DNA from: an uncultured Gammaproteobacteria bacterium
Lineage (GTDB): Bacteria > Patescibacteriota > Patescibacteriia > UBA9934
DNA: 64,000 nucleotides
Direction of reading: 5' to 3'
Assembly (NCBI GenBank): GCA_964414795.1
Contig: CAYPWV010000002.1
Span: 5,057-69,056, forward strand
Shown here: one piece after another, positions 7,059 to 40,122 of the stretch
Layout: every line of letters begins with the position of its first letter
How positions within the stretch are numbered: position 1 is the stretch's first letter
Translations under genes and position numbers: made by a program
Notes under the pieces: model-generated
Told to the model about the DNA's origin: nothing
Database searches by the model: none
The model's input: only the letters and a program-made list of their open reading frames with translations

Positions 7059-8378
7059 TTACTGGACGACTGATTCCTCTTCCTGTTGCTCGGAAGGCAA
7101 AAGACGAAACTTCTTGTGCGTATAAACGAGGCGGCTCCGCAAATGCCCGAGGAGTTCGCGCTTTTCGGTCTTGGAGCCGTCCATGAGGACGTACTTGGCG
7201 TATGCCCGAATATTCAGCTCGATTTCTTCCGCTTTGAGATCCGTGGGCTTGCCCAGAACGTGATTTAAAAACTTGCCGTATCGGGTGACCTCTTCGTCAA
7301 ATTTATAACGAATGCCAAGCTCGTCTATTTCTGCGGTGTCGATGATACCGACTAGCTCCTTGATCAACTCCTCCTCGCGAATATAGCTATTTTTGCAAAA
7401 TCGATCCCGCCCACGACTGCACCCGTAATAAATGTAATGAGCCATTGTGCCATCACTTAGTTTCTTCACCTTGTCCTCGGCAACAATGCCAGATCCGCAA
7501 AGACCACAGGTAAAAAGACGGACAAAAGAAAACTCCTTCACACTTCGCTTGGTTTGAATACGATGAAGTCGATCCTGAACCTTTTGAAACAACGCCTTCG
7601 TAATGATTGGCTCATGCTTGCCCGTATGCCACTTACCGCTTTTCTTGGGATGCTCAAATCGCCCGTAGTAAAAAGGATTATTCAGCGTTCTTTGAACGCT
7701 ACTGTGGGCGAAAACCTTTCCGTGATGCGAGCGAAACCCGATATCCTTCAGCCACTGGTAAATATTCCTCGTACTCATGCGATTATTAGCCACCTTCTCG
7801 AACATCTGTTTGATGGTAGGTGCTCGACTGGTATCGATGATCACTTCGCACTTTTTATCCGTACGATTTTGGTTGAGGTAGCCAATAGGCGCAGGACCCG
7901 GCCATAATCCAGCCTGGACACGCGAACGGATACCGCGTTTTACGTTTACGCTTCGGTTGTCGTTCTCCAATTTTGCCTGACTGCCAAGAATCATGAGCAG
8001 GAATTTCTCGTTGGGTGAATTCGTAAAACGCTGGTTGAATGTCCGAATATCAATAAGTTTTCCCGCATCCATCAAATCAACAAGCGCACCCAAATCACCA
8101 GCATTGCGGCTTAAGCGATCGGTCGCCCAGGTAAGAATGCCGCCAAACTTGCCGAAACGAACATCATTGATCAGCTCGTTGAAAATCGGTCTGTCTCCCC
8201 GCGACTTTGCGGAACGGCTTTCACGCTTTATCTCCTTGATGCTTAAGCCTTCGCGCTCGGCGAGTTTCTGCATCTCTTTGATTTGGGAATCGATGGAAAG
8301 AGATTGACGCTCCTCCGATTCGCTACTTTTTCGCGCATAGAGACAGTATGCAATTGGCTTTTGCACTTTTTCTTGCAT
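7059..8378 (-). CDS. large serine recombinase (resolvase/invertase catalytic domain + recombinase domain + zinc ribbon)
   Basis: 'YCLYARKSSESEERQSLSIDSQ' catalytic-Ser region. 'GILTWATDRLSRNAGD'. C-terminal 'CGLCGSG...YYGCSRG' Zn ribbon. Start set at the internal ATG (MQEKVQ..., 8376-8378 'cat'). Confidence 0.85.
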   Translation of the reverse strand: MQEKVQKPIAYCLYARKSSESEERQSLSIDSQIKEMQKLAEREGLSIKEIKRESRSAKSRGDRPIFNELINDVRFGKFGGILTWATDRLSRNAGDLGALVDLMDAGKLIDIRTFNQRFTNSPNEKFLLMILGSQAKLENDNRSVNVKRGIRSRVQAGLWPGPAPIGYLNQNRTDKKCEVIIDTSRAPTIKQMFEKVANNRMSTRNIYQWLKDIGFRSHHGKVFAHSSVQRTLNNPFYYGRFEHPKKSGKWHTGKHEPIITKALFQKVQDRLHRIQTKRSVKEFSFVRLFTCGLCGSGIVAEDKVKKLSDGTMAHYIYYGCSRGRDRFCKNSYIREEELIKELVGIIDTAEIDELGIRYKFDEEVTRYGKFLNHVLGKPTDLKAEEIELNIRAYAKYVLMDGSKTEKRELLGHLRSRLVYTHKKFRLLPSEQQEEESVVQ

Positions 8379-8385
8379 ACCGATT

Positions 8386-8712
8386 CTATTTCTTCTTTGG
8401 TTTTGGCGTGGGTAAATTTTTTTCAGTAATGACGACGAGCTTCGAAAGCCACTCACGATTTTCCAGCAAGTCCCCATGTATTTCCATTGATGCCTTTGCT
8501 CCTGGATACGCAAAACCTTCCTTGTAGTCCTCGCCAACAAACTGTTTTCCAGCATCCGTAATCTTAATGAAGAGCGCATCATCGCAGATTAATCCGACAA
8601 CTTTGTGAGATACATACAGGGCGTACTCGCCAAACATTTTCTTGGCTTCGATGGTAGGTAGATCAGCTAACTGATCAAGAATGTAATCCACAGTTGACTG
8701 TTTTGTTGGCAT
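8386..8712 (-). CDS. TfoX N-terminal domain protein
   Basis: 'KKMFGEYALYVSHKVVGLICDDALFIK' matches the TfoX_N consensus (MFGG.glY.dgkmFalv.dd.LylK). Confidence 0.5.
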   Translation of the reverse strand: MPTKQSTVDYILDQLADLPTIEAKKMFGEYALYVSHKVVGLICDDALFIKITDAGKQFVGEDYKEGFAYPGAKASMEIHGDLLENREWLSKLVVITEKNLPTPKPKKK

Positions 8713-8733
8713 ACGGATGAAGAAAAACCAGAA

Positions 8734-9426
8734 CTAACTCACAATATATTCGCGGATGAGTATCTTTGCGTACTCTTCTCCGGAATGAATGATCATTTTT
8801 TTGGCGAATACCAGATGGATAGAATAGATGATTCCAAGAGCAATCGACGTTCGCAAAGCTGACCCATCAGGATAAAGCCATGCAAAAACAATAACGCTTA
8901 CCGCTGATGCGAACAACGAAATAATTGACCCTCCGGCGAGGTTCCTCCAGAAACCATATTCTGCATTGTGCTGACCGATGAGGTGCCCCTTTTTCATTTT
9001 TCCGCAGATGCAGGATACCGCCTCACAAATAGTCTTGCGGGAGTGGACGGAGTCAGATTGTTCGGCTTCAATGCTTGGAATTTGAATATTGAAGTCCGAC
9101 AAGATTTTTCCATGCACCTTTTCTGTGAAATCACTTGTAAAAAAGTCGTTGAGATGCAACAGGAAATTTGTCGTCGGCATGTTCAGTCCATTGTTAAACA
9201 TTCTCTTCTGGTACAGTTCTTTTGATAAATACTTTGCCAGTTGCACGAATAGATACAATAGAACGAGAGGAATCGTAATATCAGAAACGAACTGGAGTCC
9301 GAAGATACTGTCAACAAGATCACCGATCAGTGGTCGCAAAGCGCGAAAATATAGTACAAGGAACGGAATGACACCGAGGATACCTGGGAATATTCGCGCG
9401 ACGAGTGTATATGCATCTGGTTTCAT
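8734..9426 (-). CDS. hypothetical membrane protein
   Basis: Several TM helices. Start placed at MKPDAY; the ORF extends to 9477. Confidence 0.4.
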   Translation of the reverse strand: MKPDAYTLVARIFPGILGVIPFLVLYFRALRPLIGDLVDSIFGLQFVSDITIPLVLLYLFVQLAKYLSKELYQKRMFNNGLNMPTTNFLLHLNDFFTSDFTEKVHGKILSDFNIQIPSIEAEQSDSVHSRKTICEAVSCICGKMKKGHLIGQHNAEYGFWRNLAGGSIISLFASAVSVIVFAWLYPDGSALRTSIALGIIYSIHLVFAKKMIIHSGEEYAKILIREYIVS

Positions 9427-9428
9427 AT

Positions 9429-10490
9429 CTACTCCTCGACGTATTCGTGGAATGGCTCTTCCTGAATTGGGCTCCAATCTGCCCGCGTCGGAGCATCGGC
9501 ACTACTATACCGAATAGCTTTCCCTTTTGTCGTGTAGACTGATGCGCCGATTTTTTTAAGGGCGTTGGTGACTTTCTTTGCAGGATGTTTAGTCGATTCC
9601 TTTGGAGCAGAAACGTAAGCGACCTGCGCTTTAATCCTCTTTAGGAGGCTACTGCTAAGATTTCTCTTGCTTCCGTGATGTGGAACGTCAAGAAAATGCA
9701 GGTCGGTTAATGCGATTCCCGATGTCTCAGCATAATTTGATGCATTATGAAGGGCGGTTTTTCCAGCATCTCCTGTAAACAGCATTTTGTGACCATCTAG
9801 GTTAAAGAGAATCACAGTACTCGTATTGTTCTCAGCGGAAGTCGTATCTTCGTCGTCGTTCAACAGGTCAATATCAAGGCTATCACGGATACTATTTACG
9901 ATATCTTCCGCTGCTTTTCTTATCGCCCCAAGAATACCCAATGCGTCTTTTGGTTGCGGTGTCCCGCGAAAATGCGGCAATAAGGACTGATAGTATTCCA
10001 TCGATGGACCCAGTACGTGAATCATTCCATTCATCCCACTAACGCCTTGAAACGGCTCAACTACCGTGATGTTTTTCCCTTTGGCGAGCGATTCGAGATC
10101 GCTTGCATGTTGGAGAGATTTTTCCAATTTCTCTTCAAGACCAGACGCGGTGATTCTGCCATTAACAAAAAGGCTCTTGATATCTTCGGCGTGTTCCCAG
10201 GGTTTATGCATCACAAGAGTTCCGACTCGCATCTGCTCCAAGACCACGCACAGTCCTGAGGCATGATCTGCATCTGGATGTGTAGAGATTACAAAGTCAA
10301 CAAAGTCTGTTCCTCCGTAATAGAGCTTGATGTGTTCAACCAAGGCGGTGCCAGAGTCCTTAGTCCCACCATCAATCACAATTACGGTCTGCTCTTCACG
10401 CGAACCCGCAAGGTTTCCAAAACGCAATGCGATCGCATCTCCGCCCCTTTCACCTTCTCCCACTGGGAGATAGTCAATTTCGTAAGCCAT
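9429..10490 (-). CDS. MBL-fold metallo-hydrolase (ComEC/Rec2-related beta-lactamase fold)
   Basis: 'ISTHPDADHASGL' (H-x-D-x-DH metal site). 'LDVPHHGS' downstream His motif. Confidence 0.65.
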   Translation of the reverse strand: MAYEIDYLPVGEGERGGDAIALRFGNLAGSREEQTVIVIDGGTKDSGTALVEHIKLYYGGTDFVDFVISTHPDADHASGLCVVLEQMRVGTLVMHKPWEHAEDIKSLFVNGRITASGLEEKLEKSLQHASDLESLAKGKNITVVEPFQGVSGMNGMIHVLGPSMEYYQSLLPHFRGTPQPKDALGILGAIRKAAEDIVNSIRDSLDIDLLNDDEDTTSAENNTSTVILFNLDGHKMLFTGDAGKTALHNASNYAETSGIALTDLHFLDVPHHGSKRNLSSSLLKRIKAQVAYVSAPKESTKHPAKKVTNALKKIGASVYTTKGKAIRYSSADAPTRADWSPIQEEPFHEYVEE

Positions 10491-10497
10491 ATGAACT

Positions 10498-11148
10498 TTA
10501 CTTTTTTAATTTTGGATCTTTCATCACCTCCACAACCACACCACTGATTCGGAACGTGTCTTTTTCGTCCTCGTGAATGTAAATCGGCGAATACGATTTT
10601 TCCTTCGAATCTGAGGCGAGGATGATCTGCTCGTTTTCCTCGTCCTTAACCAGACGTTTGATGTTTGCAACGTCACCGATGACTGATAACACGTACTTAC
10701 CGCTTGGCGGATCAGTTTGTCCGGAATCGACAATTGCAAAGTCGCCATCGTCAATCGTTTTACCGTTAAGCGATGCATCATTCATTGAGTTTCCACTCAC
10801 GCGCACCGCGAATACCTTGCCGCGGGTCTTGGGAAGAAGTGACTTTGATACATGCAGATACCCCTGAAGGGTTTCATCTGCAAAAATGGTCGCTGGACCA
10901 GCGTTTGCGCTACCAAAAATAGGAATGAGCAGAAGCCCGTCCACTGTTTTCCTAGAAACATCAATTTTTTTAACGATCTTTCGGTCAAAGCTCGCCTTCA
11001 AAAGACCTGCCGAAACAAGCTTCTCGAAGTGGTGCTTCACCTGCTGTGGATGAGGCTGACCGATAAGCTCGCCGATCTTCCGCAAACTTAAACTTCCGAG
11101 GTCGTGTTTCTTTGCCAGCTCCAAGATTTTTTGTTGAATTTCATGCAT
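10498..11148 (-). CDS. LexA/phage-CI-like repressor (HTH + peptidase S24)
   Basis: N-terminal HTH ('LSLRKIGELIGQ...'). S24 'GNSMND' Ser motif. Downstream 'IKRL' Lys. Confidence 0.75.
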   Translation of the reverse strand: MHEIQQKILELAKKHDLGSLSLRKIGELIGQPHPQQVKHHFEKLVSAGLLKASFDRKIVKKIDVSRKTVDGLLLIPIFGSANAGPATIFADETLQGYLHVSKSLLPKTRGKVFAVRVSGNSMNDASLNGKTIDDGDFAIVDSGQTDPPSGKYVLSVIGDVANIKRLVKDEENEQIILASDSKEKSYSPIYIHEDEKDTFRISGVVVEVMKDPKLKK

Positions 11149-11261
11149 ATTTCAAAATAATGATACAGGATAGTACATAATAGTCAAGTGGATAATTTGA
11201 CAGACTTGACACTCATAAACGTCCTCGATAAAATACCTTCATAATTCATTAAACTAATGGT

Positions 11262-11480
11262 ATGGATATCGGGCAAGAACAAATTCAAACATCATGCCCG
11301 GGGTGCGAGGCTCCAATCTCCCTCTCCATCAATGACGTGAGGGAGGAAAAATCAGTGGTCTGTCCGGGGTGCGGGAAAGACGTTGCGCTCAAGAAAGACC
11401 AATCGGTCGATAAGGTCATTGACGACGTGAACGCGTCCGTTGAGGACTTGCTCGGAACGATTCGCAGGTTCGGTAAGTAA
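11262..11480 (+). CDS. small zinc-ribbon protein (72 aa)
   Basis: 'CPGCEAP...CPGCGK' has two CxxC pairs. Confidence 0.4.
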   Translation: MDIGQEQIQTSCPGCEAPISLSINDVREEKSVVCPGCGKDVALKKDQSVDKVIDDVNASVEDLLGTIRRFGK

Positions 11481-11723
11481 AGACAGGATACGGTTACGCG
11501 TTCTTTAAAAATCCAATTACTCCTACGTTTGTGGTGGTACACCGTTATTGCTAAGGAGAACACTGAAACGCCACATAAAATAAACAGTTAGACAAACAAA
11601 CGTAGCCAAAGTGCGAGGGAAAGCTCCTACTCTTACCAAAGTTATAGGCATTAGGTCGAGTACATAAAAACTTATCAGTCTTAGTTTTTTTGTATTTAAC
11701 TTAATGCCCATTCGTTCCATATA

Positions 11724-11757
11724 AAAATCCTAACCTGATCGGTTGGGATTTTTTTCA
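11724..11757 (+). terminator. rho-independent terminator-like hairpin
   Basis: 'aaaaatcctaacc-tgatc-ggttgggattttttt': 9-bp stem including one G:U, followed by a T7 run. Confidence 0.4.
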
Positions 11758-11783
11758 TTCCCTTATTATTCACGCTTCGTTAT

Positions 11784-13067
11784 ATGTCAGAAATATCCAA
11801 AGGTTCAATAAAAGTGGAGTACGTCGCTACAGACGCACTCACCACGCCAGGCTTCAATCCGAGAAAACACGATGAGATCGCGGAAGAAAAACTCAAAGAG
11901 AGCATTAGACGATTTGGCATGCTTGACCCCCTGATTGTGAATTCCGCACCAAAGCGGAAGAACATTGTGATAGGAGGAAATTTCCGCCTATCAGTCGCTA
12001 AATCACTCGGCTTTACTCAAGTGCCCGTCGTCTACGTCAACATTCCGAATCTTGAAAAAGAGAAGGAGCTCAACGTCAGGTTAAATAGAAATACTGGCGA
12101 GTGGAATTGGGATCTCCTCAAGGAGTTTAACATGGATATGCTCATCGAAGTAGGGTTCGACGAAACTGACCTCAGCCACATTTGGGATGACACACTCTCC
12201 GTCGAGGAAGACGACTTCGATTCCGCAAAAGTCGCGGCGGCGATCAAAAAGCCAAAGACGAAATCAGGTGAGAAGTTTCAGCTCGGAAATCACGTTCTCC
12301 TCTGTGGCGATTCCACGGATCCGAAAGTGGTCGCGGATGTCATGGGCAAACATAGGATAGACATGCTTTACGCAGATAGTCCCTACAATATTTCGCTGGA
12401 TTACTCAAAAGGCATTTCAACGAATGGCAAGTACGGTGGCAATGTCGATGACAGCAAATCTCCAGCGGAATATCGCGCATTCTTGAAGTCATGTATCGAA
12501 AACGCGAAAGCGGTTGCCAAGCCCGACGCGCACTTCTTCATGTGGTGCGACCAGTCGTACATAGGACTTCTTCAGTCGCTTTACGAAGAGCTGAGCGTGA
12601 AGAACAGACGCGTGTGTTTATGGGTGAAGAACAATTTCAACATGACACCCCAGATCGCGTTCAACAAGGGCTACGAGCCAGTGGTATATGGAACGATTGG
12701 CTCGCCATATCTCTGCGACAAGGTGATGAACCTCACCGAGATTCTCAACCGCGATATCCAGCCCGGTAATCGTACCATCGACGACATCATTGATGTGTTC
12801 GATTTGTGGCTCGCCAAGCGTCTCAACGCTCAGGATTACACCACGCCAACCGAGAAGCCCGTATCACTTCACGAGAAGCCGCTTAGACGCTGTACGAAGC
12901 CCGGAGACATCGTCCTCGATCTCTTTGGAGGATCGGGTAGCACGATGGCTGCCTGCGAGCAGATGAAGCGAAAGTCATTCACCATTGAAAAAGATCCAGT
13001 GTTCTGTGACGTAATCATCCAACGATATGAAAAACTCACCAACCAAAAAGCAAAGCGCATCAATTAA
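11784..13067 (+). CDS. ParB-like nuclease domain fused to a beta-class DNA (N6-adenine/N4-cytosine) methyltransferase
   Basis: N-terminal ParB/Srx-like ('LDPLIVNSAP...GGNFRL'). Methyltransferase motif IV 'DSPYN'. Motifs 'TPTEKP' and 'FGGSGST' (motif I). Order IV then I indicates beta class. Confidence 0.8.
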   Translation: MSEISKGSIKVEYVATDALTTPGFNPRKHDEIAEEKLKESIRRFGMLDPLIVNSAPKRKNIVIGGNFRLSVAKSLGFTQVPVVYVNIPNLEKEKELNVRLNRNTGEWNWDLLKEFNMDMLIEVGFDETDLSHIWDDTLSVEEDDFDSAKVAAAIKKPKTKSGEKFQLGNHVLLCGDSTDPKVVADVMGKHRIDMLYADSPYNISLDYSKGISTNGKYGGNVDDSKSPAEYRAFLKSCIENAKAVAKPDAHFFMWCDQSYIGLLQSLYEELSVKNRRVCLWVKNNFNMTPQIAFNKGYEPVVYGTIGSPYLCDKVMNLTEILNRDIQPGNRTIDDIIDVFDLWLAKRLNAQDYTTPTEKPVSLHEKPLRRCTKPGDIVLDLFGGSGSTMAACEQMKRKSFTIEKDPVFCDVIIQRYEKLTNQKAKRIN

Positions 13068-13833
13068 TCTCGGGGACATTTTTGTCCTGGGGAATCATCG
13101 CCTCGTATACGGGGACTCACGAGATGTGAAACTCGTAGATAAGCTATTCGGAAAGGATCGTGCTAGCCTCATGCTTCTAGATCCGCCTTATGGAGTAGCC
13201 TACGTGGAAAGCAAAAGCGGATTTAAACAGAAGCTCGGGAAAGAAAAGATCATCGCGAACGATCACTCGCAATCCGACGAAGAATATCGGCAATTCACCA
13301 AAGATTGGTTGGAGCCGATAAGGCATCATCTCGCTCCAAAGAATACCTACTACATCTTCAACTCGGACAAGATGATCTTTGCCATGCGCGAAGGCATCCT
13401 CGACGCGGGATTCAAGTTCACTCAACTCCTCATATGGGCGAAGTCACACGCAGTCATTGGTCGCATGGACTACCTCCCTCAGCACGAGTTGATCGCCTAT
13501 GGTTGGTACGGCACGCACAAGTTCATGAAGTCCAAGGACAAGACAATCCTCATTTATCCGAAGCCCTCAAACTCGAAGGCACACCCGACCATGAAACCTA
13601 TCGGATTGTTGCGGCGGCTCATCATGAACAGCTCGAGTATCCATGAAGTCGTCTACGATGGGTTCCTCGGAAGCGGATCAACACTCATAGCTTGCGAAGA
13701 TACACGACGGCGATGTTATGGAGTGGAAATTGAACCAGAATACATTGCAACGATTATCAAACGGTTCGAGGAAAAAACAGGGATCAAAGCAAAGTTGATA
13801 GAAAACGCATATGAAAAAACAAGTACCAAGTAA
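13027..13833 (+). CDS. DNA methyltransferase (beta-class N6A/N4C; DPPY family)
   Basis: 'LLDPPYGV', 'HPTMKP', 'FLGSGST'. Overlaps the upstream methyltransferase by 41 nt. Confidence 0.8.
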   Translation: MKNSPTKKQSASINLGDIFVLGNHRLVYGDSRDVKLVDKLFGKDRASLMLLDPPYGVAYVESKSGFKQKLGKEKIIANDHSQSDEEYRQFTKDWLEPIRHHLAPKNTYYIFNSDKMIFAMREGILDAGFKFTQLLIWAKSHAVIGRMDYLPQHELIAYGWYGTHKFMKSKDKTILIYPKPSNSKAHPTMKPIGLLRRLIMNSSSIHEVVYDGFLGSGSTLIACEDTRRRCYGVEIEPEYIATIIKRFEEKTGIKAKLIENAYEKTSTK

Positions 13834-14260
13834 GGTCATTGAACGCCAGGATGACAAGAAAAGTGAGATGATCGAACAGTTGAAGCGAACGCCGATCGTG
13901 CAAGTTGCGTGCGAAAAGGTCGGGATCGGTCGCGCAACATATTACCGCTGGCTCAAAGACGATGACGACTTTCACGTTCAATCGCAACAGGCAATCATCG
14001 AAGGCAATTCACTCGTGAGCGACATGGCAGAAAGTCACATGATCAGCATGATTCGAAACGGCAACCTCGGCGCTATTACGTTTTGGCTCAAACATCGTCA
14101 CCGTGCTTACGGAACGCGCGTTGATCTGAACGCCAGCGTTCGCGTCGATCGTCCGCTTACACAAGAAGAGGAAGAAGCGATCGGTCGCGCGCTCACCCTC
14201 GGAAACGTCATTTCGAGCGAAATCACTCCCTATGAAAACGGAAACGGAGAATCTGAATGA
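13811..14260 (+). CDS. phage terminase small subunit-like protein (HTH)
   Basis: 'VACEKVGIGRATYYRWLKDDD' HTH. Position immediately upstream of and overlapping the terminase large subunit gene. Confidence 0.5.
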   Translation: MKKQVPSKVIERQDDKKSEMIEQLKRTPIVQVACEKVGIGRATYYRWLKDDDDFHVQSQQAIIEGNSLVSDMAESHMISMIRNGNLGAITFWLKHRHRAYGTRVDLNASVRVDRPLTQEEEEAIGRALTLGNVISSEITPYENGNGESE

Positions 14261-15683: not shown

Positions 15684-16199
15684 TGGCTGGGGTCGCGTGT
15701 CCTCAAAGTCCCACTGGAGGATCAGAAAGTTTTCAGGAGTCAGTCCGTACTTCAAACATGCTTCGAGCCAAGTGATCTGTGATCCTCTCACAGAATCGCG
15801 CTTTTTGCGTTTCGATTCTACGAACAGGAGTTTATCGTTCCTCCATGCAATTACGTCCCAACAGCCTTTGTACGAGTTGTTATTCAGCTTCGCAATGCCA
15901 GCCAACGTGTCCGTAATCCATCGTTCCTGAATCGGCACGTTTACCTGATCTTTATATGGCGCATCTTTCCACTGCGTGAGATAAATCGGTTCTTTATTTC
16001 CTCGTCCGTACACCTCAACCCATCGCGTTTCATAGTCGTCTCGTTTCATGGTTTCCGCGATAGCCAGCTCGGCGAACATCGGCTTGCCGTCGATATCAAT
16101 CAAACCCTTATTCCCGAACGTGTGGTTGATTGGCGCACCAGACCACCGTCGAAAAAGCATGTCACGTTCTGGAATGGGTACTGAGCCGAGGATAGGCAT
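15651..16199 (-). CDS. PD-(D/E)xK nuclease, VRR-NUC-like
   Basis: 'CWDVIAWRNDKLLFVESKRKKRDSVRGSQITWLEA' follows the D...E-x-K...Q pattern of VRR-NUC. Confidence 0.5.
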   Translation of the reverse strand: MPILGSVPIPERDMLFRRWSGAPINHTFGNKGLIDIDGKPMFAELAIAETMKRDDYETRWVEVYGRGNKEPIYLTQWKDAPYKDQVNVPIQERWITDTLAGIAKLNNNSYKGCWDVIAWRNDKLLFVESKRKKRDSVRGSQITWLEACLKYGLTPENFLILQWDFEDTRPQPSLSQPDARPI

Positions 16200-16221
16200 A
16201 TGATGCGATGCTGTTCATCGA

Positions 16222-17535: not shown

Positions 17536-17544
17536 GCATTGACG

Positions 17545-18962: not shown

Positions 18963-18965
18963 AGG

Positions 18966-20434: not shown

Positions 20435-20445
20435 ACACGCACTTG

Positions 20446-27785: not shown

Positions 27786-27848
27786 ACCATTTTGGGTAAA
27801 ATTAAAACCAAGCAATATTCGCAATACTCAGCGAATGGAAGCCTGGTT

Positions 27849-29749: not shown

Positions 29750-29754
29750 AGGCG

Positions 29755-31899: not shown

Positions 31900-34800
31900 A
31901 TTTGCAAAGGCGTAGCTGACTGTCCCGAACCCTCTATAATCCGTTTTTCTTTATCCGTGATTCCGTAAAGATTGAATATCTTTTCATTGATTTCATTCTC
32001 TAAGCCATGTGCCACATCAGAGCTTCCATGATCTTTTCTCAAATCAGTAAGCCGATCAACTAATGAGATCAATTCGGACTCATCTTTGTCATTAGGAACT
32101 ACAACTGGAAGAATTTCAATTTTATATTTCTTCCATCGGTTCGTCCCCATTCCAGAAGTAGTGGAAATTTGCTCAAAATACCATTTACCCAAAGCCGAAT
32201 TGAGAACTGCTACTAAGAATTTAAGATGTTCGCCGGTGAGAATAAAGAGGGTTGCTTCAGCAAAATACCCTTGATCGTCGAAAGCAAATTTTGGCTCATC
32301 GGAAAGCTCCCCCCAAATTATTTTTGGACGAACAAAATCATCGTAGTAATCGCACGAACGCAATTCCCACCAGTATTTTCCCTGATCCTCACGGTCGTAT
32401 AACCCCTTTCCCTTTGCTTTAACCGTAGCACCAATATGTTGCAAATAGCTATAAATAGAGGGGTGCTGCGTCTTGAAAAATTCTTCGGGATTCATATCTC
32501 CTCGGTGTAAATCAGTCCATCCAGATGGAATGACAAACATCCACTCATCACCGAACTCATAAAAGAACTTTTGAACGTTTCTTCCTCTCAATATAGGTTT
32601 AATCAATTCTGCAGATTGAGGATTTTCTCTAACTATTTCTTCACGTACAGTTCCGCCAAAAATAAATGCCTGATTATATCCTGTTTTAATGCCGAAGTTT
32701 ATTCTTATTCCAAGTTCTTTTACTGGCTTGCCGATGTCATCTATTTTTTGTTTGAGATTTTGTGAATCTTCGTTGCCGACAAGCCATCCGTTCTGCTCAT
32801 CAAGCTTCTCAATGTTGACTGAGTTTTTTTCTACGAAATTTGCTAGCGATGTTCGTTCGTGTTGCTCACTTGTTAGCACGGCACCTGTTAGTTTCCCTTG
32901 CCATGAACCCTTGCGAGCAAAAAAGATGCAGGCTTCGACAGTGGCCGCTTCAAAAACTTGTGCATTCTCGATGTTAATTAGAATAAATGGGTCGGCTTTT
33001 GTAACCAGGAATTTACGCAATGATTTTCCGTAAAGAGTTCTTAGCCATGAATTTGAAGTGATATAAGAAATGATTCCACCCTTGGAAAGAAGATTGGCAC
33101 CACGTTCATAAAAAAGACAGTATAGATCCCCTCGTTTCTCATACGTTGAGTAAACGCTTGCATAACTTGCACGCTGTACCTCAGATATCTTCATTTTTTG
33201 AAGCTGGACGTAGGGCGGATTACCAATAACCACTCCAAATCCATTTTCAATTCCAAACATTATTTGTGGATCAAAAAATGTAGCCGTATTTTCAGCATTA
33301 AATGGCTGATAGGTTTTTAGTTGCTTTTCTCTATCCGAAGAGAACATTCCGTCCATTCCGTTTTTTCCTTTAACGAGGGTTTCAAATTTTTCCCGTAATT
33401 CCTGCTTTCGGGAATGCTTTCTTGCTCGGAAATATTCGTCACGAATTTCTATGAGCTGATCTTCTTTGAGTGTGTCGTAAAGTCCTTCAGCATGGTCAAG
33501 TGGCATCAATGAATTCGCGCAGACGAACTTGAAATCAAGGTTTGGCAATGGCTCAATACGACCATCTGATACATCCTCATCAACGATGATTGAAAGCCAA
33601 GCACGAAGACGGGCGATCTCTACCGCCATCGGCTCAATATCAACGCCAAAAATGTTATTTTTGATAATCGTTAGTTTTTTCTTGTAGGGATCATAATCGC
33701 TTTCCAAGCGATCGTATGTTTCCAGGAGAAGCTGGAGCATGCCCATTGGAAAAGCACCCGATCCACAAGCTGGGTCGAGCACCGTAAGCTCTTCTAGAGC
33801 TTCGAGAATGTCGTGCTTATACGGTTTAAGGTCTCCCCGATAATTCCGTTGCTGATCCCGGAACTCATGTGGTTTTTTATCAAGTAACTTTGCAAGTTGT
33901 TCGTCACGATCCGTCGTTTCAGGAATCCTAGATCGGAGATATTCTCGTAAACTCTCCTTACACATGTAATCAACGATCTCCCGGGGGGTGTAGAATGCAC
34001 CCTTCGCCTTGCGAGCCTGTTCTCCGGTTTCTTCGATCTGTTCCGCGAGCAAATTTTCAAAAATACGACCCAACATTTCAGGATCAATTGCTACCTGCTG
34101 AAACGTACTTGAGGACTCATCGGTCGTAAAGTTATAGCGGCGAAGAAATTCGTAGAGACGATCAAAATAATCTGCCGGAAAAGAAACGCGGACATCACCC
34201 TCATGGTCGCCAGTTTTTGCCTCGAACAAACCTCCGTTGAGAAATGGAGTTTTTATATCCAGTCCACTGATACGTTCGTCAACTGGTGTGTTAAGAATTC
34301 TGAAAAATAATGTTTCGAGTTTTGTGCGATAATGTTCAGATGCGGCTAAACCATTTGTTTGAAAGTAATTAACTTCTGTATTTAGAATTCCTTTTTTATC
34401 AATGAACCAACAGAAGATGATGCGACCAATAAGACGGTTTACGAATAAAGCCGCCGAATGATCATCAAACAGGTCTTTTGATTTTGAAAGGAGATGTTGT
34501 TTGAGCTCTGTAAAGAATGAGCTGATCGTCTTGTAAAAGACTTTATTTATTGCCTCAAAGTTAAAGCTATCCCAAAGTATTTGATGGAGTTGCGCTTTGT
34601 TCGAAAAATTAAAAGGCTGAGTCCATTTTGAAAAAATCTCGGAAGCAGTTGGAGAAAGACGGTCGCGCAACTCGATAACACGTAAAGCATGTTCTTTGCT
34701 TAAGACAACGAAAACCCGATCAGCTTTTTCTGGAATGACGAAATCTATACCAACATTTTCTGATGCAAGCCAGGGCGCATCTTCGAAGTTAGGTGTAATC

Positions 34801-35132
34801 GCTGTCACCCAATGAATGACGGATTTATTCGTGTTCTGTACCCAGTAAGTTTTAAAGTCGAGTTTTCGATCATTTCCCTTAGCCACTTCGTAGACTGCCC
34901 GTCGGTCAGCATAACCATCGGCGGGCATGAACCAGTGACCATTCGAGCGAATTTTTCCCGCTGAATCGCTAAATAACCTCCAGCCGTCAGGTTCGCCCGA
35001 AACACCAAGAAGAGCGATGACAGCGTTAATCACCGCCTGCGTTCCTTGGAAGGAATGATTTGCAGCAAGCGAGTGTAGGGCATTATCGATCTGCCGAAGT
35101 AGCTGATTGGGGTTATTCGTTTGTTCTGGCAT
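31896..35132 (-). CDS. MmeI/PglX-like (type IIG/IIL-like) gamma-class N6-adenine DNA methyltransferase, 1078 aa
   Basis: 'FLNGGLFE' motif. 'GAFYTPREIVDYM' (motif X). 'LDPACGSGAFP' (motif I). 'GNPPYVQ' (motif IV). Long C-terminal TRD-like region. ATGA overlap with the downstream gene. Confidence 0.8.
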   Translation of the reverse strand: MPEQTNNPNQLLRQIDNALHSLAANHSFQGTQAVINAVIALLGVSGEPDGWRLFSDSAGKIRSNGHWFMPADGYADRRAVYEVAKGNDRKLDFKTYWVQNTNKSVIHWVTAITPNFEDAPWLASENVGIDFVIPEKADRVFVVLSKEHALRVIELRDRLSPTASEIFSKWTQPFNFSNKAQLHQILWDSFNFEAINKVFYKTISSFFTELKQHLLSKSKDLFDDHSAALFVNRLIGRIIFCWFIDKKGILNTEVNYFQTNGLAASEHYRTKLETLFFRILNTPVDERISGLDIKTPFLNGGLFEAKTGDHEGDVRVSFPADYFDRLYEFLRRYNFTTDESSSTFQQVAIDPEMLGRIFENLLAEQIEETGEQARKAKGAFYTPREIVDYMCKESLREYLRSRIPETTDRDEQLAKLLDKKPHEFRDQQRNYRGDLKPYKHDILEALEELTVLDPACGSGAFPMGMLQLLLETYDRLESDYDPYKKKLTIIKNNIFGVDIEPMAVEIARLRAWLSIIVDEDVSDGRIEPLPNLDFKFVCANSLMPLDHAEGLYDTLKEDQLIEIRDEYFRARKHSRKQELREKFETLVKGKNGMDGMFSSDREKQLKTYQPFNAENTATFFDPQIMFGIENGFGVVIGNPPYVQLQKMKISEVQRASYASVYSTYEKRGDLYCLFYERGANLLSKGGIISYITSNSWLRTLYGKSLRKFLVTKADPFILINIENAQVFEAATVEACIFFARKGSWQGKLTGAVLTSEQHERTSLANFVEKNSVNIEKLDEQNGWLVGNEDSQNLKQKIDDIGKPVKELGIRINFGIKTGYNQAFIFGGTVREEIVRENPQSAELIKPILRGRNVQKFFYEFGDEWMFVIPSGWTDLHRGDMNPEEFFKTQHPSIYSYLQHIGATVKAKGKGLYDREDQGKYWWELRSCDYYDDFVRPKIIWGELSDEPKFAFDDQGYFAEATLFILTGEHLKFLVAVLNSALGKWYFEQISTTSGMGTNRWKKYKIEILPVVVPNDKDESELISLVDRLTDLRKDHGSSDVAHGLENEINEKIFNLYGITDKEKRIIEGSGQSATPLQI

Positions 35133-38100
35133 ACATCAGAAGCGGTTCCGCCCCGTTAGGCCGCTCAACACGGTCAATATTACGTTGAAGTGTTCGGGCA
35201 ATATCAAGAATCGTTTGAACGTCTTGTAGGACCGAACCATTTTCATTCTTTGTTTTTACAATACGACGCACACACTTTTTCATATCTTCACGAGCAAGGA
35301 CATTCTTCGTACCAAATGCCATTCGTACAACATCAAGATCGTCTTGCGAAAAATGAAGTTCGTACATGATCCGAAGAACGTCTCCTTGTTGTCCAACAGG
35401 AGCGATGACCACTTCGTCATCATGATAAGCCTCTGCGGCTTCCTTCGCGCGGGCTAAGAGATTAACCCGATCAGCACTGATGTGATCAGCTTGACGTTCA
35501 TTGCTCCGTTGAATTGTTGAACGAAGCCATTCAAGAGCCTGTAGTTGAGGCACGTGGTGCATTTCGCGTCCATCTCTATTCATGGCTACAAAAGCATAGC
35601 CAAGGGTAACTTCAGAAGAGCTTTGAAGAGAAACGAGTGAGAGGATATCGGGGCGTTCGTCACCGCGAGATGTCGCGGTCGGCATCACCCCCCATTTCCT
35701 TTTTGGAATATTGTATATTTCCGCCTTCTGTTCTGGTGTGTGATTTGGATCGTGATGGAATCTCTTCAAGTCTGAAACAAACTCATCTTCGGCGAGCAAG
35801 AAATCAGCTTCGCCCTCAGCATTTTGAATCGCTTCCATGCGCGCCTCGACATCACTACTGTAAACGTCCTTCCAAGAATCAACGAACTCTATCGGATTCG
35901 CTTTTTCATCGAGCACTGGAGTGTCCGTACCGATAGTGTTACGAATGAGATCGATCTTTCGTTCAAGGCGTGCGACCAAACGCAGATATTCGTCCAATTG
36001 TCCCTCTGGAGAAATGTTATAAATGTAGACATCCTTGAATGATGTTCCAAGACGATTCACTCGACCGTTTCTCTGGATCATACGAACGGGATTCCAGTGA
36101 AGGTCATAGTTCACAAGAATGCCGCAGTCTTGAAGATTCTGTCCTTCTGACAAGATATCGGTCGAAAAAAGATAGGATAATTCTTTTTCTCCATCCTTCA
36201 GTGCGTGTTGTTTGGAGACAGGAGAGAATCGACCCGCAAGCGATTCTGCATCCTCTCGATTATTTGAAGATAAAAATGCAGCGTTATCTTTATTTACGAC
36301 ATTCGTACGCGTTTCAACCACTTCACGCAGATAATTAATCGTGTCAGCGTAATAGGAGAAAATAAGGACTTTTTTACCAGCTGGTTGACGCTTTGCAAGA
36401 TCCTCAATGAGACCAATAAAAGTCTTGAGTTTTGAGTCGTCTTCGTGAAGGACGACTAATTGCTGACGAAGCAAATCAATTAACTCACGTTCCTTTGCAA
36501 CGTCGGCTTTGAGCGCATTGACTACGTAATTATTTTCATCGATTGTGTCGTGAATGAATTCCTCAGGCATTTCAACTTCTTCCGCATCTTTATCCTCAAC
36601 GTCACCAAGGATTTCGTCGATTTCATCAATGTTCGTTAACGTAATAATTTTCCCTTGGCGTAACCCACGCTCAAAGATCTCGAGCTTGTGATCGTAAGTC
36701 TCCAGCGATGAATGAATTGCGCTGACCGAAGATTCGAGACGTTTCAGGAACATCGTACGGAGAATGCCGTAGATACTAAGCTGAGAGAACAAACTGTTTC
36801 GTTCATCGCTCGAAAGCTTCATTTCCTTAATTTCTTCGCGGGTCTTTCCGTAAAATTTTGTTTGATACATCTGCCAACGGTAGGGCAAGAAACCGAGCAG
36901 AAGGATCGTACGATAAATTAAGGCGATGGGAGAAGTAACATCCGCTGTCTCACCTGAGGATTGCGCGTTACTTATCTGATCGATCGGATGTGTGAGCCGC
37001 TGAGTGGCATCAACGATATCGCTAATCGTCAAAGAGTACAGCGAGTCTAGATCGACCGAATCAGTGGTGATGTCTCGAATTCTTTTTGCAACCTCTTCGT
37101 TAAACCGGTATGTACGAACATCTGGAACGACTTTGGGGAATGTTTGTAGAACACCCTGATCATCTACAAGTCCACCGTATTCCTTCTCAATCCCTTGGCG
37201 TGTTCGACGGACAACGAACTCACGGAGGATCGGAGACATGGTTGCTCGAACATACCCGAAATCAATCGACTTTCCTTCCTCGGCATCTCGTTTAATTGAG
37301 CGTGCAAGATTTTCTACTGCCTGATTGAAGTCAACGATTGTGGTCTGCTTGTTCTTTTTATCTGGCACGGCAAAGCGTAGAAGACCTGCTTCTCCTCGGC
37401 ACGCAAGCAAGATTTGGTTGGTGATATCGGAGAGCTGGTTGTTAATTGGTGTGGCAGTCAAAAGCAAGACATGAGCTTTTGGATTCGCGCCAATCCATTC
37501 AGTGATTTGCTTGAAGCGTTTTCCGGAACGACTTTTAAGGTTATGCGATTCATCAATCACGAATAATCCAACGGCAGCAATTGAATCAAGACCTTGTCTG
37601 CGCTCAATCTCGCGAGGATTTTGCAACGTGATAGGCGTAGAGCCATCCATCCTTTGGGTCGCCATTTGTTTCTCCCATTGCACGGTAAGAGATTTCGGAC
37701 AAATAATCTCAACACGCAAGCCGGATTCTTTATACTGCTTAATGACCTCAATCGCCGTGATAGTTTTTCCTAATCCTACCGAGTCAGCTAGCATTGCAAC
37801 CTTATGCTTCCGTAACCGACGCATGAGGCCGTGAACGTTTTTCATTTGAAAATCGTGCAGGGTAAATGTTCCACGGGTGGTTTCCTTCAAATCTTCGTCT
37901 TCCAACTCCTCTTTATAAATTTCGTACAAAGTTTTGATGTACATCTCATATGGCGTAAAAAGCATGTCGCCATGTGAAGATTGGGAAATAATCGCGGTAA
38001 ACGATTGATCCCACGGAAGAGACTTATTCCAAAATTGGTCAAACCATGCGAGGTGACCGACCTCCTGATCTTCGACGCGTGGAGTGTAAGTAACGATACG

Positions 38101-38583
38101 ATGATCGGCTTCGAGTGCGTTGAGTTCGGTATTGGCGGTCAAGCCGTTCTTCGTGAAGTTAGATGAGCCAATAATGCCCACCGCTTCAGGGGATTCGTAG
38201 TTTCCAAAAATATAACACTTCGCGTGGAAGAATTCTTCTTTATAAACCCTAACTTCAAGTACGCCTTTTGCGATTAAATCTTTGATTGTAACGACGGACT
38301 CTCTAAAAGTTTCATTGTGTTCAAGACGTTCCAAGTCTGAGAAAAAATCCTTATCGGGAAAGTCGACCTCGGGTTTTTTTAATTGGTATCGGGGAATGAG
38401 AGGTTCGCGACCAATAAGCAAACGGATTTTCTTGCAGTCCTTTAGTTGGGGTAAAACAAGCGTTGTACCGGGGAGATCCCAATAGCCAGTAGCGATCGAG
38501 ATTTCTTCGTGTTTAGTGGCAAGCTCCTGAAATGCAGCAAGAAGTGACTGTCGGTGATTATCGATGATTCGAGAAGTTGCCAT
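35113..38583 (-). CDS. phospholipase-D-family nuclease domain fused to an SNF2-family helicase (~1156 aa)
   Basis: N-terminal HKD 'HAKCYIFG...GSSNFTKNG'. Helicase 'FVIDESHNLK', 'LLLTATPINN', 'NPVRMIQRNGRVNRLG'. Start at the internal ATG 38581-38583 (MATSRII); the ORF extends to 38634. Confidence 0.8.
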   Translation of the reverse strand: MATSRIIDNHRQSLLAAFQELATKHEEISIATGYWDLPGTTLVLPQLKDCKKIRLLIGREPLIPRYQLKKPEVDFPDKDFFSDLERLEHNETFRESVVTIKDLIAKGVLEVRVYKEEFFHAKCYIFGNYESPEAVGIIGSSNFTKNGLTANTELNALEADHRIVTYTPRVEDQEVGHLAWFDQFWNKSLPWDQSFTAIISQSSHGDMLFTPYEMYIKTLYEIYKEELEDEDLKETTRGTFTLHDFQMKNVHGLMRRLRKHKVAMLADSVGLGKTITAIEVIKQYKESGLRVEIICPKSLTVQWEKQMATQRMDGSTPITLQNPREIERRQGLDSIAAVGLFVIDESHNLKSRSGKRFKQITEWIGANPKAHVLLLTATPINNQLSDITNQILLACRGEAGLLRFAVPDKKNKQTTIVDFNQAVENLARSIKRDAEEGKSIDFGYVRATMSPILREFVVRRTRQGIEKEYGGLVDDQGVLQTFPKVVPDVRTYRFNEEVAKRIRDITTDSVDLDSLYSLTISDIVDATQRLTHPIDQISNAQSSGETADVTSPIALIYRTILLLGFLPYRWQMYQTKFYGKTREEIKEMKLSSDERNSLFSQLSIYGILRTMFLKRLESSVSAIHSSLETYDHKLEIFERGLRQGKIITLTNIDEIDEILGDVEDKDAEEVEMPEEFIHDTIDENNYVVNALKADVAKERELIDLLRQQLVVLHEDDSKLKTFIGLIEDLAKRQPAGKKVLIFSYYADTINYLREVVETRTNVVNKDNAAFLSSNNREDAESLAGRFSPVSKQHALKDGEKELSYLFSTDILSEGQNLQDCGILVNYDLHWNPVRMIQRNGRVNRLGTSFKDVYIYNISPEGQLDEYLRLVARLERKIDLIRNTIGTDTPVLDEKANPIEFVDSWKDVYSSDVEARMEAIQNAEGEADFLLAEDEFVSDLKRFHHDPNHTPEQKAEIYNIPKRKWGVMPTATSRGDERPDILSLVSLQSSSEVTLGYAFVAMNRDGREMHHVPQLQALEWLRSTIQRSNERQADHISADRVNLLARAKEAAEAYHDDEVVIAPVGQQGDVLRIMYELHFSQDDLDVVRMAFGTKNVLAREDMKKCVRRIVKTKNENGSVLQDVQTILDIARTLQRNIDRVERPNGAEPLLMYARTNE

Positions 38584-38707
38584 AGGAAAAATATTCCCTC
38601 GAATTTTATCAGAAAATGACCACAGGAGCAACATAATTGTTCATGCCCAGGAAAGTAGAATAATCTGACCTAATACTAGCAAATATTGGCGTTTTTTAAT
38701 CAATTAG

Positions 38708-38728
38708 TTACCTACAGCTTACCTACAG
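38708..38728. repeat. tandem direct repeat 'ttacctacag' x2 upstream of the recombinase gene
   Basis: 38708..38717 and 38719..38728 are identical 10-mers separated by 1 nt, about 60 nt upstream of the ATG. Confidence 0.5.
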
Positions 38729-38790
38729 GTCGTGACTAGGCACCCGGGACAGACGCGGTAGTGTGTGGGTATTAGGAGTAACCAAATCTT

Positions 38791-40122
38791 ATGTACGGAC
38801 AAAATACGAATAACGAAACGCAGGCTATACCAATCCGCTACTGCCTTTATGCAAGAAAATCGTCCGAGGACGATGAACGGCAAGCCTTATCGATTGAGAG
38901 TCAGGTTAAAGAGGTTATGGAATTAGCAGTGAGAGATGGATTGAGCGTTATAGAAGTTCGTCGAGAAAGTCACTCCGCAAAAAGCTCTGGGTCACGCCCA
39001 GAGTTTAATCGTTTAATAGGAGACATTCGTGAAAAGAAATTCGATGGAATCCTCACATGGGCAGCAGATCGTATCAGTCGTAACGCTGGTGATCTTGGTA
39101 CGGTCGTCGACTTGATGGATCAAGGCTTGCTTAAAGAAATCAGAACGCATGGACCCCGATTCACCAACTCACCAAGTGACAAGTTCATGCTCATGATGAT
39201 GTGCGGTCAAGCAAAGCTGGAAAACGATAACAAAGGCGTAAACGTGAAGCGAGGCTTCCGAGCGAAAGTAGAGATGGGCTACAGACCGAATATGTCACCG
39301 CTCGGCTATCTCCATGACAAATATGCAGAAAAGGGTGCCCGTAGAATTTTCATGGATCCCGAGCGTGGACCGATGGTTAAAGAGATCTTCCATAAGGTTG
39401 CATACGAAGGTTGGACGGGACGCAATATCCAGAACTATATGAAAGAAAAAAACTTCACCACGCGCAAAGGAAAAAATGTTTCGCTGAGTATGATCTATCG
39501 CATGATGGATAACCCTTTCTACACGGGTCGATACGAATTTCCGCAGAAGAGCGGTCAGTGGTATCAGGGAAAACATGAGCCGTTAATAACAAAAGATGTG
39601 TTCGAGCGGGTTCAGGAAGTCATGAAAGTAACAGGAACACGGGTACCGCCAGGAACACACGAATTCGGATTCACACGAATGTTTAAATGTGGAAACTGTA
39701 ATTCAGGAATCAGTGCTGAGGAAAAGAAGAAGCGTTTGAAGGACGGCACGATAAAGCGATACGTTTACTACGGATGCATGAAACGCTGGGTGACCGGCTG
39801 TAAGGAGCCGTACATTCGAGAAGAAGAGCTATTGAGCCAGCTTTGTAAAATCATTGAGAGCGTCGACATCGATGAACTCGCCGCTGTCGCGCGGATTAAA
39901 GAGGAAATAGATCGACTAACCAAGATGATCTCGAGTCTCGGTGGTCACATTGCAACCGCAAAAGTTGCCGAAATCATGCCAGACATCGACGTATATGCAT
40001 GTGCAAAATACATCCTTAAAGAAGGGACAAAAGAGGAAAAACGAGATTTACTGGGACACGTTCGAACTGAGCTAACAATCACTGGAGGAACTATCACCAA
40101 TCGTGCTAAGAGAAAGAAATGA
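38791..40122 (+). CDS. large serine recombinase, paralogous to 7059..8378
   Basis: 'YCLYARKSSEDDERQALSIESQ', 'GILTWAADRISRNAGD', 'CGNCNSG...YYGCMKR' Zn ribbon. Roughly half of residues identical to the first recombinase by eye. Confidence 0.85.
   Translation: MYGQNTNNETQAIPIRYCLYARKSSEDDERQALSIESQVKEVMELAVRDGLSVIEVRRESHSAKSSGSRPEFNRLIGDIREKKFDGILTWAADRISRNAGDLGTVVDLMDQGLLKEIRTHGPRFTNSPSDKFMLMMMCGQAKLENDNKGVNVKRGFRAKVEMGYRPNMSPLGYLHDKYAEKGARRIFMDPERGPMVKEIFHKVAYEGWTGRNIQNYMKEKNFTTRKGKNVSLSMIYRMMDNPFYTGRYEFPQKSGQWYQGKHEPLITKDVFERVQEVMKVTGTRVPPGTHEFGFTRMFKCGNCNSGISAEEKKKRLKDGTIKRYVYYGCMKRWVTGCKEPYIREEELLSQLCKIIESVDIDELAAVARIKEEIDRLTKMISSLGGHIATAKVAEIMPDIDVYACAKYILKEGTKEEKRDLLGHVRTELTITGGTITNRAKRKK

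Follow-up and report, generated by a model that had tools for sequence, protein, structure and literature searches.

The stretch of DNA analysed here, which we call the window, is 64,000 nucleotides of contig CAYPWV010000002.1 (assembly GCA_964414795.1), deposited as an uncultured Gammaproteobacteria bacterium and placed in the Patescibacteriota by its GTDB lineage. It contains genes for two large serine recombinases (LSRs), here named LSR1 and LSR2, and these two genes and the DNA around them are the subject of this study. A preliminary description, made from the letters of the window, had noticed that both genes abut accessory DNA, and this is the case: a phage-like block lies beside LSR1, defence genes lie beside LSR2, and a metal/Dsb operon is found between (Table 1). 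In the phage-like block the S24 repressor (10498-11148) matches phrog_4 (transcriptional repressor, E = 5e-21) and TerL matches phrog_38 (E = 2e-76). The block had been called prophage-like, which as a statement about a prophage could not be upheld: TerS, TerL, methylases and the S24 repressor are present, and no portal, capsid, tail or lysis genes were detected with Pfam on the region or with PHROGs on 10 block proteins. Loci and contigs used for comparison are numbered with the prefix L.

Table 1. Features of the region, in window coordinates; "island" refers to the island proposed in the text.
Feature	Position	Strand	Remark
Gmad2, TspO, GH3 hydrolase	509-3878		left of the island
Small open reading frames (ORFs) of low GC content (0.37-0.38), including a HicA-type toxin at about 5017-5250	4303-6215	-	PF07927 on the L001 gene call
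Left terminus, 24-mer resembling a tRNA 3' end (CCA, discriminator, acceptor strand, T-stem, T-loop)	6425-6448	-	same sense as tRNA-Asn
Non-coding terminal module	6449-6607	+	TGAGACAnnTGAGACA boxes (6515-6530) and inverted GTCTCA repeats
Protein with a Cys4 zinc ribbon and a C-terminal helix-turn-helix (HTH)	6608-7058	+	first island gene; ORF listed as 6396-7058, likely start 6608
LSR1, 439 residues	7059-8378	-	transcribed toward the left terminus, 610 bp from it
TfoX_N-domain gene, 108 residues	8386-8712	-	8 bp upstream of LSR1
Unknown ORF, metallo-beta-lactamase-fold protein, S24 (LexA/CI-like) repressor	8734-11148	-	co-directional with LSR1
ParB-N6/N4 methylase, second methylase, TerS-like HTH protein, TerL	11784-15683	+	packaging-type module
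Two unknown ORFs	15651-16755
Metal/redox cargo: YbaK-like (+ strand), M14 peptidase, two CDF transporters, PAP2, two DsbA, DsbB, SurA-like, cupredoxin, DsbD-HMA, Cu-type P-ATPase	17002-28238	-	GC content 0.51-0.54, highest of the region
Defence cargo: DUF2779/Cas4-like, GmrSD (HEC-06/Orf5), type IIG restriction-modification (R-M) enzyme, HKD-SNF2 helicase	28283-38634	-
LSR2, 443 residues	38791-40122	+	transcribed toward tRNA-Asn
Three low-GC ORFs, one weakly HEPN/PDC-M34B-like	40072-43386	-	between LSR2 and the arm
Right terminus: terminator-like hairpin and conserved arm	43573-43639	+	LSR2-clade motif at 43611-43631, abuts the tRNA CCA end
tRNA-Asn (GTT)	43640-43714	-	proposed integration target, convergent with LSR2, 3518 bp downstream; sole tRNA in the window
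pepA, DUF3179 gene, rsmI, metG, tatD, alaS	from 44232		right of tRNA-Asn

Both recombinase genes are intact and free of stop codons at the coordinates of Table 1, and no recombinase pseudogene remnants were found elsewhere in the window. The start codon that gives LSR1 its 439 residues is used by the gene calls on four independent contigs, and an alternative ORF of 507 residues would overlap the upstream TfoX_N gene. The Pfam domains Resolvase (PF00239, E = 1.6e-21 and 1e-19 in the two proteins), Recombinase (PF07508, 67 and 64 bits) and Zn_ribbon_recom (PF13408, 28.0 and 26.0 bits with a cut-off of 25.3) are all present above the Pfam cut-offs, with about 100 residues on the C-terminal side of the zinc ribbon. 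S18 of LSR1 aligns to the nucleophile serine of SprA (YokA) of SPbeta, which is also its best match among solved structures (E = 2e-11 in a PDB search), and the motif YARKSSE and the four cysteines of the ribbon are invariant across 36 members of the family. The three domains and the serine alignment bear out the earlier assignment to the large serine recombinases of integrative elements.

The two proteins are identical at 212 of 418 positions (51%, with 69% positives, BLASTP E = 2e-153), and the long blocks that were said to be shared, YCLYARKSSE, GILTWA.DR.SRNAGDLG, QAKLENDN..VNVKRG and CG.C.SG...YYGC, can all be found in both. This is above the level of generic serine recombinases, as compared to the 25-28% identity between LSR2 and the integrases of deposited phages. 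The word paralogous, taken as a local duplication, does not describe the pair. The LSR1 protein has an identical copy on four other contigs, and its nearest non-identical relatives among the matches listed are 91%, 74% and 69% identical, with most members at 58-65%. LSR2 belongs to a clade of its own, with 70-81% identity among the matches listed. Compared with about 200 members of the LSR1 clade it reaches 45-55% identity, where LSR1 itself has 58-65%. Since each recombinase has closer relatives in other genomes, the two are not recent duplicates; judged from the alignments, 51% is what is usual between two clades of the family and gives no sign of a local duplication. At least two family recombinases on one contig are common (L105, L109/L110, L023, L067, L082, L102/L103, L113/L126, L131/L134 and L151/L152), as two or three copies that are adjacent, convergent or 16-36 kb apart, and the identities within such pairs range from 26 to 86%.

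Termini and tRNA genes

The left junction lies between positions 6424 and 6425 and is a breakpoint of homology. To its right, starting at TGGCTCGG..., there are hardly any differences between the window, L002 and L003; to its left the three are unrelated, and L002 and L003 have terminator hairpins there that abut TGG. The terminal module is ordered as the tRNA-like 24-mer, about 70 nt, the TGAGACAnnTGAGACA (GAGACA) boxes and the first gene (alignments A5 and A8). The same module heads elements in L165, L116, L162, L009, L011, L012, L015 and L026, and in L007 it is inverted and located just past the stop codon of the recombinase. Of the loci, 19 have the box motif, in most cases 100-250 bp before either the recombinase gene or a homologue of the first gene, and the window has one copy.

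The 24-mer matches the 3' end of tRNA-Asn at 18 of 24 positions, the best match within positions 1-43600 of the window, and 9 of 500 shuffled queries did equally well. It co-varies with the element side and not with the outer flank, as seen in L003 and L162, which have the same flank and different 24-mers, and its first bases follow the type of the target tRNA (Ser, Asn-like, Gln-like or Trp-like): TGGCGGAGAG in tRNA-Ser elements, TGGCTC (Asn-like) in the window, L162 and L165, and TGGCTGG (Gln-like) in L116. For this reason we take the 24-mer to be a half-site that belongs to the element and mimics the end of a tRNA. It could alternatively be a displaced tRNA end, with the crossover in the T-loop, and the boundaries are the same under both readings. 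No RNA gene was found at the left junction with Rfam, even at E = 10. Motifs resembling tRNA 3' ends are not generally enriched upstream of family recombinases (5 sense as compared to 9 antisense matches), and distal tRNA fragments within 10 kb are clear in only 4-5 loci.

A search for short direct repeats flanking the recombinase-linked blocks had been proposed. What the two junctions share is a 9-nt identity, TCATGGCTC (6422-6430 and 43637-43645), and so short an identity without any longer repeat is as expected for serine recombinases. A copy of the 3' half of tRNA-Asn at 80% identity or more was not found, and there were no meaningful long flanking repeats, direct or inverted.

The first gene, which encodes the zinc-ribbon and HTH protein, has 19 homologues in 18 loci. 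Its position relative to the recombinase varies, and for this reason it was rejected as a fixed partner of the recombinase. In Pfam the family has weak HTH_17/MerR matches in 3 of 17 members and weak zinc-ribbon matches, and a PDB profile search with the protein gave no match. The product is, from its sequence, a candidate regulator or recombination directionality factor. Just outside the left junction, the sequence to the left of 6424 resembles an arm that is also present in L165, and the low-GC ORFs there may be the remnant of an older insert. Between these ORFs and the GH3 gene is a 250-bp unit (3999-4246) with 35-nt inverted arms, each containing a GGTTC...GAACC hairpin, and an internal terminator-like hairpin; the Logan contig L001 ends within it. 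The unit is possibly similar to a miniature inverted-repeat transposable element, or an old element boundary.

To find the targets of the family, tRNA genes were surveyed with ARAGORN on all loci. Upstream of the family recombinases there was one tRNA in 571 kb, and downstream there were 68 convergent and 13 co-directional tRNAs in 466 kb. A convergent tRNA is present within 5 kb in 58 loci, and in 46 of these 58 it is a tRNA-Ser. Such a one-sided convergent pattern implies that the family targets tRNA 3' ends. In the commonest class the gap between recombinase and tRNA is 110 bp and consists of a terminator hairpin and, after it, a conserved arm of about 65 nt; the arm ends in ...GCCGATAAAAAATTGTC, right at the CCA end of the tRNA. 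Cargo of 1-5 kb between the recombinase and the tRNA is common in the family. Among the relatives of LSR2, the recombinase of L164 (70% identical) has a convergent tRNA-Asn 3.9 kb downstream.

The 35 nt to the left of the tRNA-Asn of the window (...GCATGTGGGACACCACACACGTTCACTCA/TGG) recur twice. In L164 the copy of the arm is placed beside a 20-nt tRNA-Asn fragment, 1.1 kb downstream of the recombinase, and in L166, where the recombinase is 80% identical to LSR2, it is found 2.65 kb downstream. A degenerate 21-nt arm motif, GCAYGTGGGNCNCCNCACACG, occurs among 247 loci only in the window (and its duplicate contigs), L164 and L166, and all carriers have an LSR2-clade recombinase upstream on the same strand. 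The window has one copy, where none would be expected by chance. L164 (11311-15334) is also a clean example of tandem accretion: the LSR2-clade arm and the tRNA-Asn fragment are followed by a 2.8-kb insert without recombinase (radical SAM/SPASM and others), and a Ser-class-like arm adjoins the intact tRNA-Asn. In two other loci ARAGORN found, beside family elements, tRNA-Ser genes with the unusual anticodon ACT (L017:12169-12256 and L102:15917-16004), which may be element-borne or altered by integration.

To the right of tRNA-Asn the order from pepA to tatD is conserved in relatives. Two small features stand out in this part. Between rsmI and metG, which are adjacent in L171 and L172, there is an ORF6N/KilA-N-type gene and a 133-residue ORF (47808-48727, GC content 0.40), and this looks like a separate small insertion in an otherwise conserved synteny. 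Between tRNA-Asn and pepA an ORF of 44 residues, rich in Lys and Arg (43876-44010, minus strand), is a called gene on L006 and may encode a small ribosomal-type protein.

Gene neighbourhoods of the recombinase family

The family has at least 8000 proteins at E <= 1e-20 (8000 of 8000 scored). Species-representative genomes gave at least 591 confirmed matches, almost all of them in Patescibacteria, also known as the candidate phyla radiation (CPR), and 66 IMG/VR contigs carry family recombinases. The window itself is taken to come from a CPR genome, probably of Candidatus Uhrbacteria. A literature search found no published description of the family. Some contigs with a CPR recombinase are titled Gammaproteobacteria, Izemoplasmatales, Rhabdochlamydiaceae, Nanoarchaeota or Bacteroidetes (L011, L015, L019, L023, L033, L045 and others), and these are probably mislabelled or mis-binned contigs of metagenome-assembled genomes.

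The neighbourhoods were compared by clustering the ORFs from 80 genome loci and 66 IMG/VR loci. A compact order recurs, with one or two methylases, terS, TerL, 0-5 variable genes and the recombinase; among 150 loci with a family recombinase, methylases are present in 90, TerL in 62 and terS in 61. The S24 repressor is frequently found upstream of this module in the divergent direction, and in many loci the repressor is followed by one or two methylases, terS, TerL and the recombinase, all reading away from it. The order in which two methylases, terS and TerL read forward, the cargo reads backward and the recombinase reads forward again fits the orientation of LSR2. The smallest elements of the family, 3.5 kb, consist of a recombinase with downstream cargo (L012, L015, L026). 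Among 150 neighbouring proteins from 50 related loci no portal, capsid or tail family was found in the 25 most frequent PHROG families, and no primase or Rep family was recurrent among the neighbours of family loci. No circular or excised forms were recognised, as there were no terminal overlaps among the whole-contig loci.

The variable genes are overwhelmingly of defence type: MmeI-like type IIG enzymes, type I and type III R-M systems, OLD/AAA_15, AbiEii, reverse transcriptase with Avd, the cyclic-oligonucleotide-based antiphage signalling system (CBASS) and DUF2779. The arrangement at the right end of the defence cargo, in which type IIG and HKD-SNF2 genes read backward and the recombinase forward, is also seen in L079 and L151. 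Reverse transcriptase with bAvd (parts of diversity-generating retroelements), OLD-family ATPases and AbiEii were observed as cargo in L098, L117, L129, L144 and others, and CBASS in L162. The genes copA, cupredoxin and dsbD recur on either side of family recombinases in at least eight unrelated genomes.

Three other candidate relations came to nothing. The co-phylogeny of the module with LSR1 or LSR2 was uninformative, and TfoX was rejected as a family-wide neighbour of the recombinase. With tblastn the TerS-like protein (13811-14260) weakly matches residues 180-305 in many family recombinases; a kinship with the DNA-binding domain of the recombinase was rejected, with a profile-profile probability of 13% over a 51-residue HTH only.

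One island, two islands or a remnant

Both recombinase genes are transcribed outward, the left-type and the right-type terminus are in the correct mutual orientation, and no second terminus of either type was found in the window. The intact tRNA-Asn at one end and the 24-mer at the other are both in the minus sense. L130 has the same order on 12 kb with one recombinase: 24-mer, homologue of the first gene, methylase, terS, recombinase and tRNA-Asn. The terminus orientation, the lack of a second terminus, the single tRNA and L130 together lead us to read the region, with moderate confidence, as one composite island bounded by attachment (att) sites, 37,215 bp from 6425 to 43639 at tRNA-Asn, with LSR1 near the left end and LSR2, its presumed cognate integrase, near the right. 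The two junctions would then be partners in one element. Of the suggestions in the preliminary description, two ends of related elements fits best, each gene being close to one attachment-type junction (between 6424 and 6425, and between 43639 and 43640), and two independent elements is less favoured. The metal/redox operon, which had been described as core-looking, would on the one-island reading be inside the bounded region; it has the highest GC content there, and its recurrence elsewhere also speaks against a core origin.

The comparison of strains showed partial polymorphisms only, a loss in L088 and a cassette swap in L002. L002 has an identical LSR1 protein. Its identity to the window is 99-99.7% over the segment corresponding to 6425-8733 and about 88-90% in the block and on the ybaK side, and an AAA_13 cassette is found in place of 8734-12004. 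In L088 the metal operon is 97.9% identical, and 8683-16914 (8.2 kb) and the whole LSR1 end are missing, with breakpoints inside codon 10 of tfoX and 160 bp from ybaK. It was considered that L088 could be the empty site of an 8.2-kb insertion into tfoX with TTACA repeats. This was rejected, because the first 10 codons of tfoX can be seen from L002 to be native, and L088 is therefore an internal deletion. TfoX_N is a stand-alone gene in the window. Its counterpart in L088 (12874-13557) forms a fusion with DUF1801, starts without the first 10 codons and is 83% identical, as compared to 97.9% for the adjacent operon. In L008, where the YbaK protein is 85% identical, the block occupies the same ybaK site and the recombinase is only 64% identical. 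Taken together, L002, L088 and L008 suggest a long residence with exchange of modules.

Several of these observations, and some others, weigh against a single mobile island. The recent history of 6425-8733 differs from that of the adjacent block (99.5% as compared to about 90% identity to L002), the metal operon persists in L088 without the block or LSR1, and the pattern in L008 suggests long residence rather than recent mobility. In L162 the copper genes are located beyond the recombinase, apparently outside that element, and the LSR1 subclade (L007, L008, L247) has no nearby tRNA. The match of 18 of 24 positions is only modestly above chance, about 10 of the positions being common to any tRNA 3' end, and from a reading of the sequence the acceptor-strand bases of the 24-mer are not able to pair with the present 5' strand of tRNA-Asn. 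No empty tRNA-Asn site or circular junction was recovered, and in a search anchored at pepA the relatives were syntenic downstream of pepA and not upstream. An internal junction of some other type could also have been overlooked.

Because of the differences in L002, L088 and L008, a history with two independently integrated elements stays alive. The first would cover about 6.4-16.9 kb with the left terminus, LSR1 and the repressor, methylase and terminase genes, the second about 28-43.6 kb with LSR2 and the defence genes, up to tRNA-Asn, and the DNA from YbaK to copA would be native chromosome. LSR1 and the S24 repressor indeed form a co-directional operon of lysogeny type, divergent from the methylase-TerL genes, which is the same in L002, L008 and L106, the block adjoins ybaK in three lineages, and L088 has kept the metal operon while the block and LSR1 are missing. 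LSR1 and LSR2 are of different clades and separately acquired, and the existence of 3.5-kb family elements shows that an element can be small. Still, we find this history doubtful. An element with a left end of tRNA type and minus sense should have a minus-strand tRNA at its other end, and there is none at 16.9 kb; no second terminal module or arm was found; the L088 breakpoint inside tfoX does not look like an att site; and the GC content of the metal operon, and its recurrence beside family recombinases, favour cargo.

It is also conceivable, and in our opinion improbable, that the region holds one or two decayed prophages, the block being what is left of a temperate CPR phage after loss of the structural genes and nothing being mobile any longer. 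TerL, TerS, phage-type methylases and a CI-like repressor would fit, as would the family recombinases on IMG/VR contigs, the deletion in L088 and the replaced cassette in L002. However, dozens of unrelated genomes have this compact module right beside the recombinase, no portal, capsid or tail family recurs among the 150 neighbouring proteins, and the same remnant is unlikely to have arisen so many times by independent decay. Both recombinases are intact, with identical copies in several samples, and strains with a divergence of about 10% elsewhere have 99.5% identity in the LSR1 end, which implies recent transfer. That the recombinases are no integrases at all, and instead invertases or phase-variation switches acting on restriction specificity genes or on the 30-kb intervening segment, is hardly credible: many members carry the JGI label 'DNA invertase Pin-like', about 12 family loci are found beside type I R-M genes with duplicated cluster-c2 genes, and recombinase-driven inversion of hsdS is known (PMC7672463), but the three-domain architecture is that of large serine integrases and not of small invertases, the tRNA association is strict and one-sided, no significant inverted repeats flank the segment, and the window has no type I system.

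If the region is one composite island, its formation can be pictured as follows. Family recombinases would insert small phage-derived islands at the 3' ends of tRNA genes. Recombinase dimers would bind attP, composed of the arm and the tRNA-like half-site, and attB, composed of the downstream flank and the 3' end of the tRNA, and strand exchange would take place within or next to the shared TCA/TGGCTC, at or near the CCA end. LSR1 may have arrived with the left-terminal segment of a related element, giving a composite, whether by accretion, by exchange of cassettes or by fusion. A directionality factor would be required for excision, and the first gene is a candidate for it; excision is predicted to join 43639 to 6425 in a circle with the attP junction ...CACACACGTTCACTCA/TGGCTCGGCGGGCGG.... 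The methylase-TerS-TerL module, controlled by the repressor, may serve a satellite-style packaging.

More tentatively, we suggest that LSR islands which target tRNAs, with an SOS-type repressor, one or two methylases, TerS, TerL, a recombinase and a terminus that mimics a tRNA, occur throughout the phylum as phage-satellite-like vehicles, which would use their own terminase and the capsids of helper phages to shuttle defence and metal genes, and that the window is a large composite with two integrases. Genomes of CPR bacteria are about 1 Mb, and gene exchange among them is poorly understood. If the family picture holds, much of the plasticity of these genomes, including defence islands and copper/disulfide operons, would be explained by a single lineage of recombinases whose tRNA targets can be predicted and whose termini can be recognised, and many 'viral' contigs in IMG/VR would be small islands. 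It would also provide a rule for delimiting islands in metagenome-assembled CPR genomes, a candidate satellite system to seek in virus-particle metagenomes, and a large set of short serine integrases (about 440 residues) with att sites that can be inferred, of interest for genome engineering. The metal operon in the window should then not be treated as core.

Comparison with known systems

Two related integrases beside accessory DNA is a correct and fairly ordinary observation. The family, and a composite with two integrases, are less ordinary, and we found no description of them. The assignment of the region to the prophages is not supported, no structural gene having been detected. The phage serine integrases (SPbeta SprA, A118/LI, TP901-1, phiC31, Bxb1) are similar in being three-domain enzymes with a short crossover core. 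They differ by their 25-28% identity, and the members of the family studied here are short for the class and target tRNA 3' ends. To our knowledge, phage large serine integrases mostly target protein-coding genes.

The gene content of the family is closer to that of the satellites, the phage-inducible chromosomal islands (PICI), the capsid-forming PICI (cfPICI) and the PICI-like elements (PLE), which at about 5-15 kb have an integrase, a repressor-type switch, one or more terminase subunits of their own and defence cargo without a full virion set. The integrase of PLE is a large serine recombinase. Such a gene set is found in the compact family loci; in the window the module is placed inside a 37-kb island. 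Unlike in PICI and cfPICI, TerL is present here without capsid genes, and neither a helper phage nor a replication module nor genes for capsid remodelling were identified.

Two other groups of islands are integrated at genes for structured RNAs. In Dehalococcoides, McMurdie et al. are said to have described in 2011 ssrA-specific serine-recombinase islands, which reportedly form tandem arrays at the 3' end of the gene for a small structured RNA, likewise in a genome that is reduced, and carry adaptive cargo. They differ from the present elements by the tmRNA target, a direct repeat of about 20 bp, and another recombinase lineage and cargo. The tycheposons of Prochlorococcus also target tRNAs in streamlined genomes, come in cargo and PICI-like (terS or capsid) forms and have full or partial tRNAs at their ends, but 910 of 937 use tyrosine recombinases, with large serine recombinases in a minority, and many have replication genes (Hackl et al., bioRxiv 10.1101/2020.12.28.424599). 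The family described here is always of the large serine type, has TerL together with TerS, and no primase/helicase replication module was seen in it.

In its organisation, the window resembles the staphylococcal cassette chromosome (SCC) elements. These have large serine recombinases, sometimes two diverged ones, are inserted at the 3' end of a conserved housekeeping gene, accrete in tandem into composites, carry metal-resistance and R-M cargo and can have partners that lack an LSR. As in SCC and SCCmec (CcrAB/CcrC), there are two diverged recombinases in the window with metal and R-M cargo, and tandem accretion can be seen in its relative L164. By target and by sequence the window is still no SCC element: the target is a tRNA gene and not rlmH/orfX, the host belongs to the Patescibacteria, and the recombinases are 30 kb apart at opposite ends, whereas ccrA and ccrB are adjacent and act together. 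SCC also has no methylase-TerS-TerL module. The relation in sequence is at the level of the superfamily only, with no Ccr chain among the six PDB matches of LSR1, and the resemblance between the two systems is a functional one.

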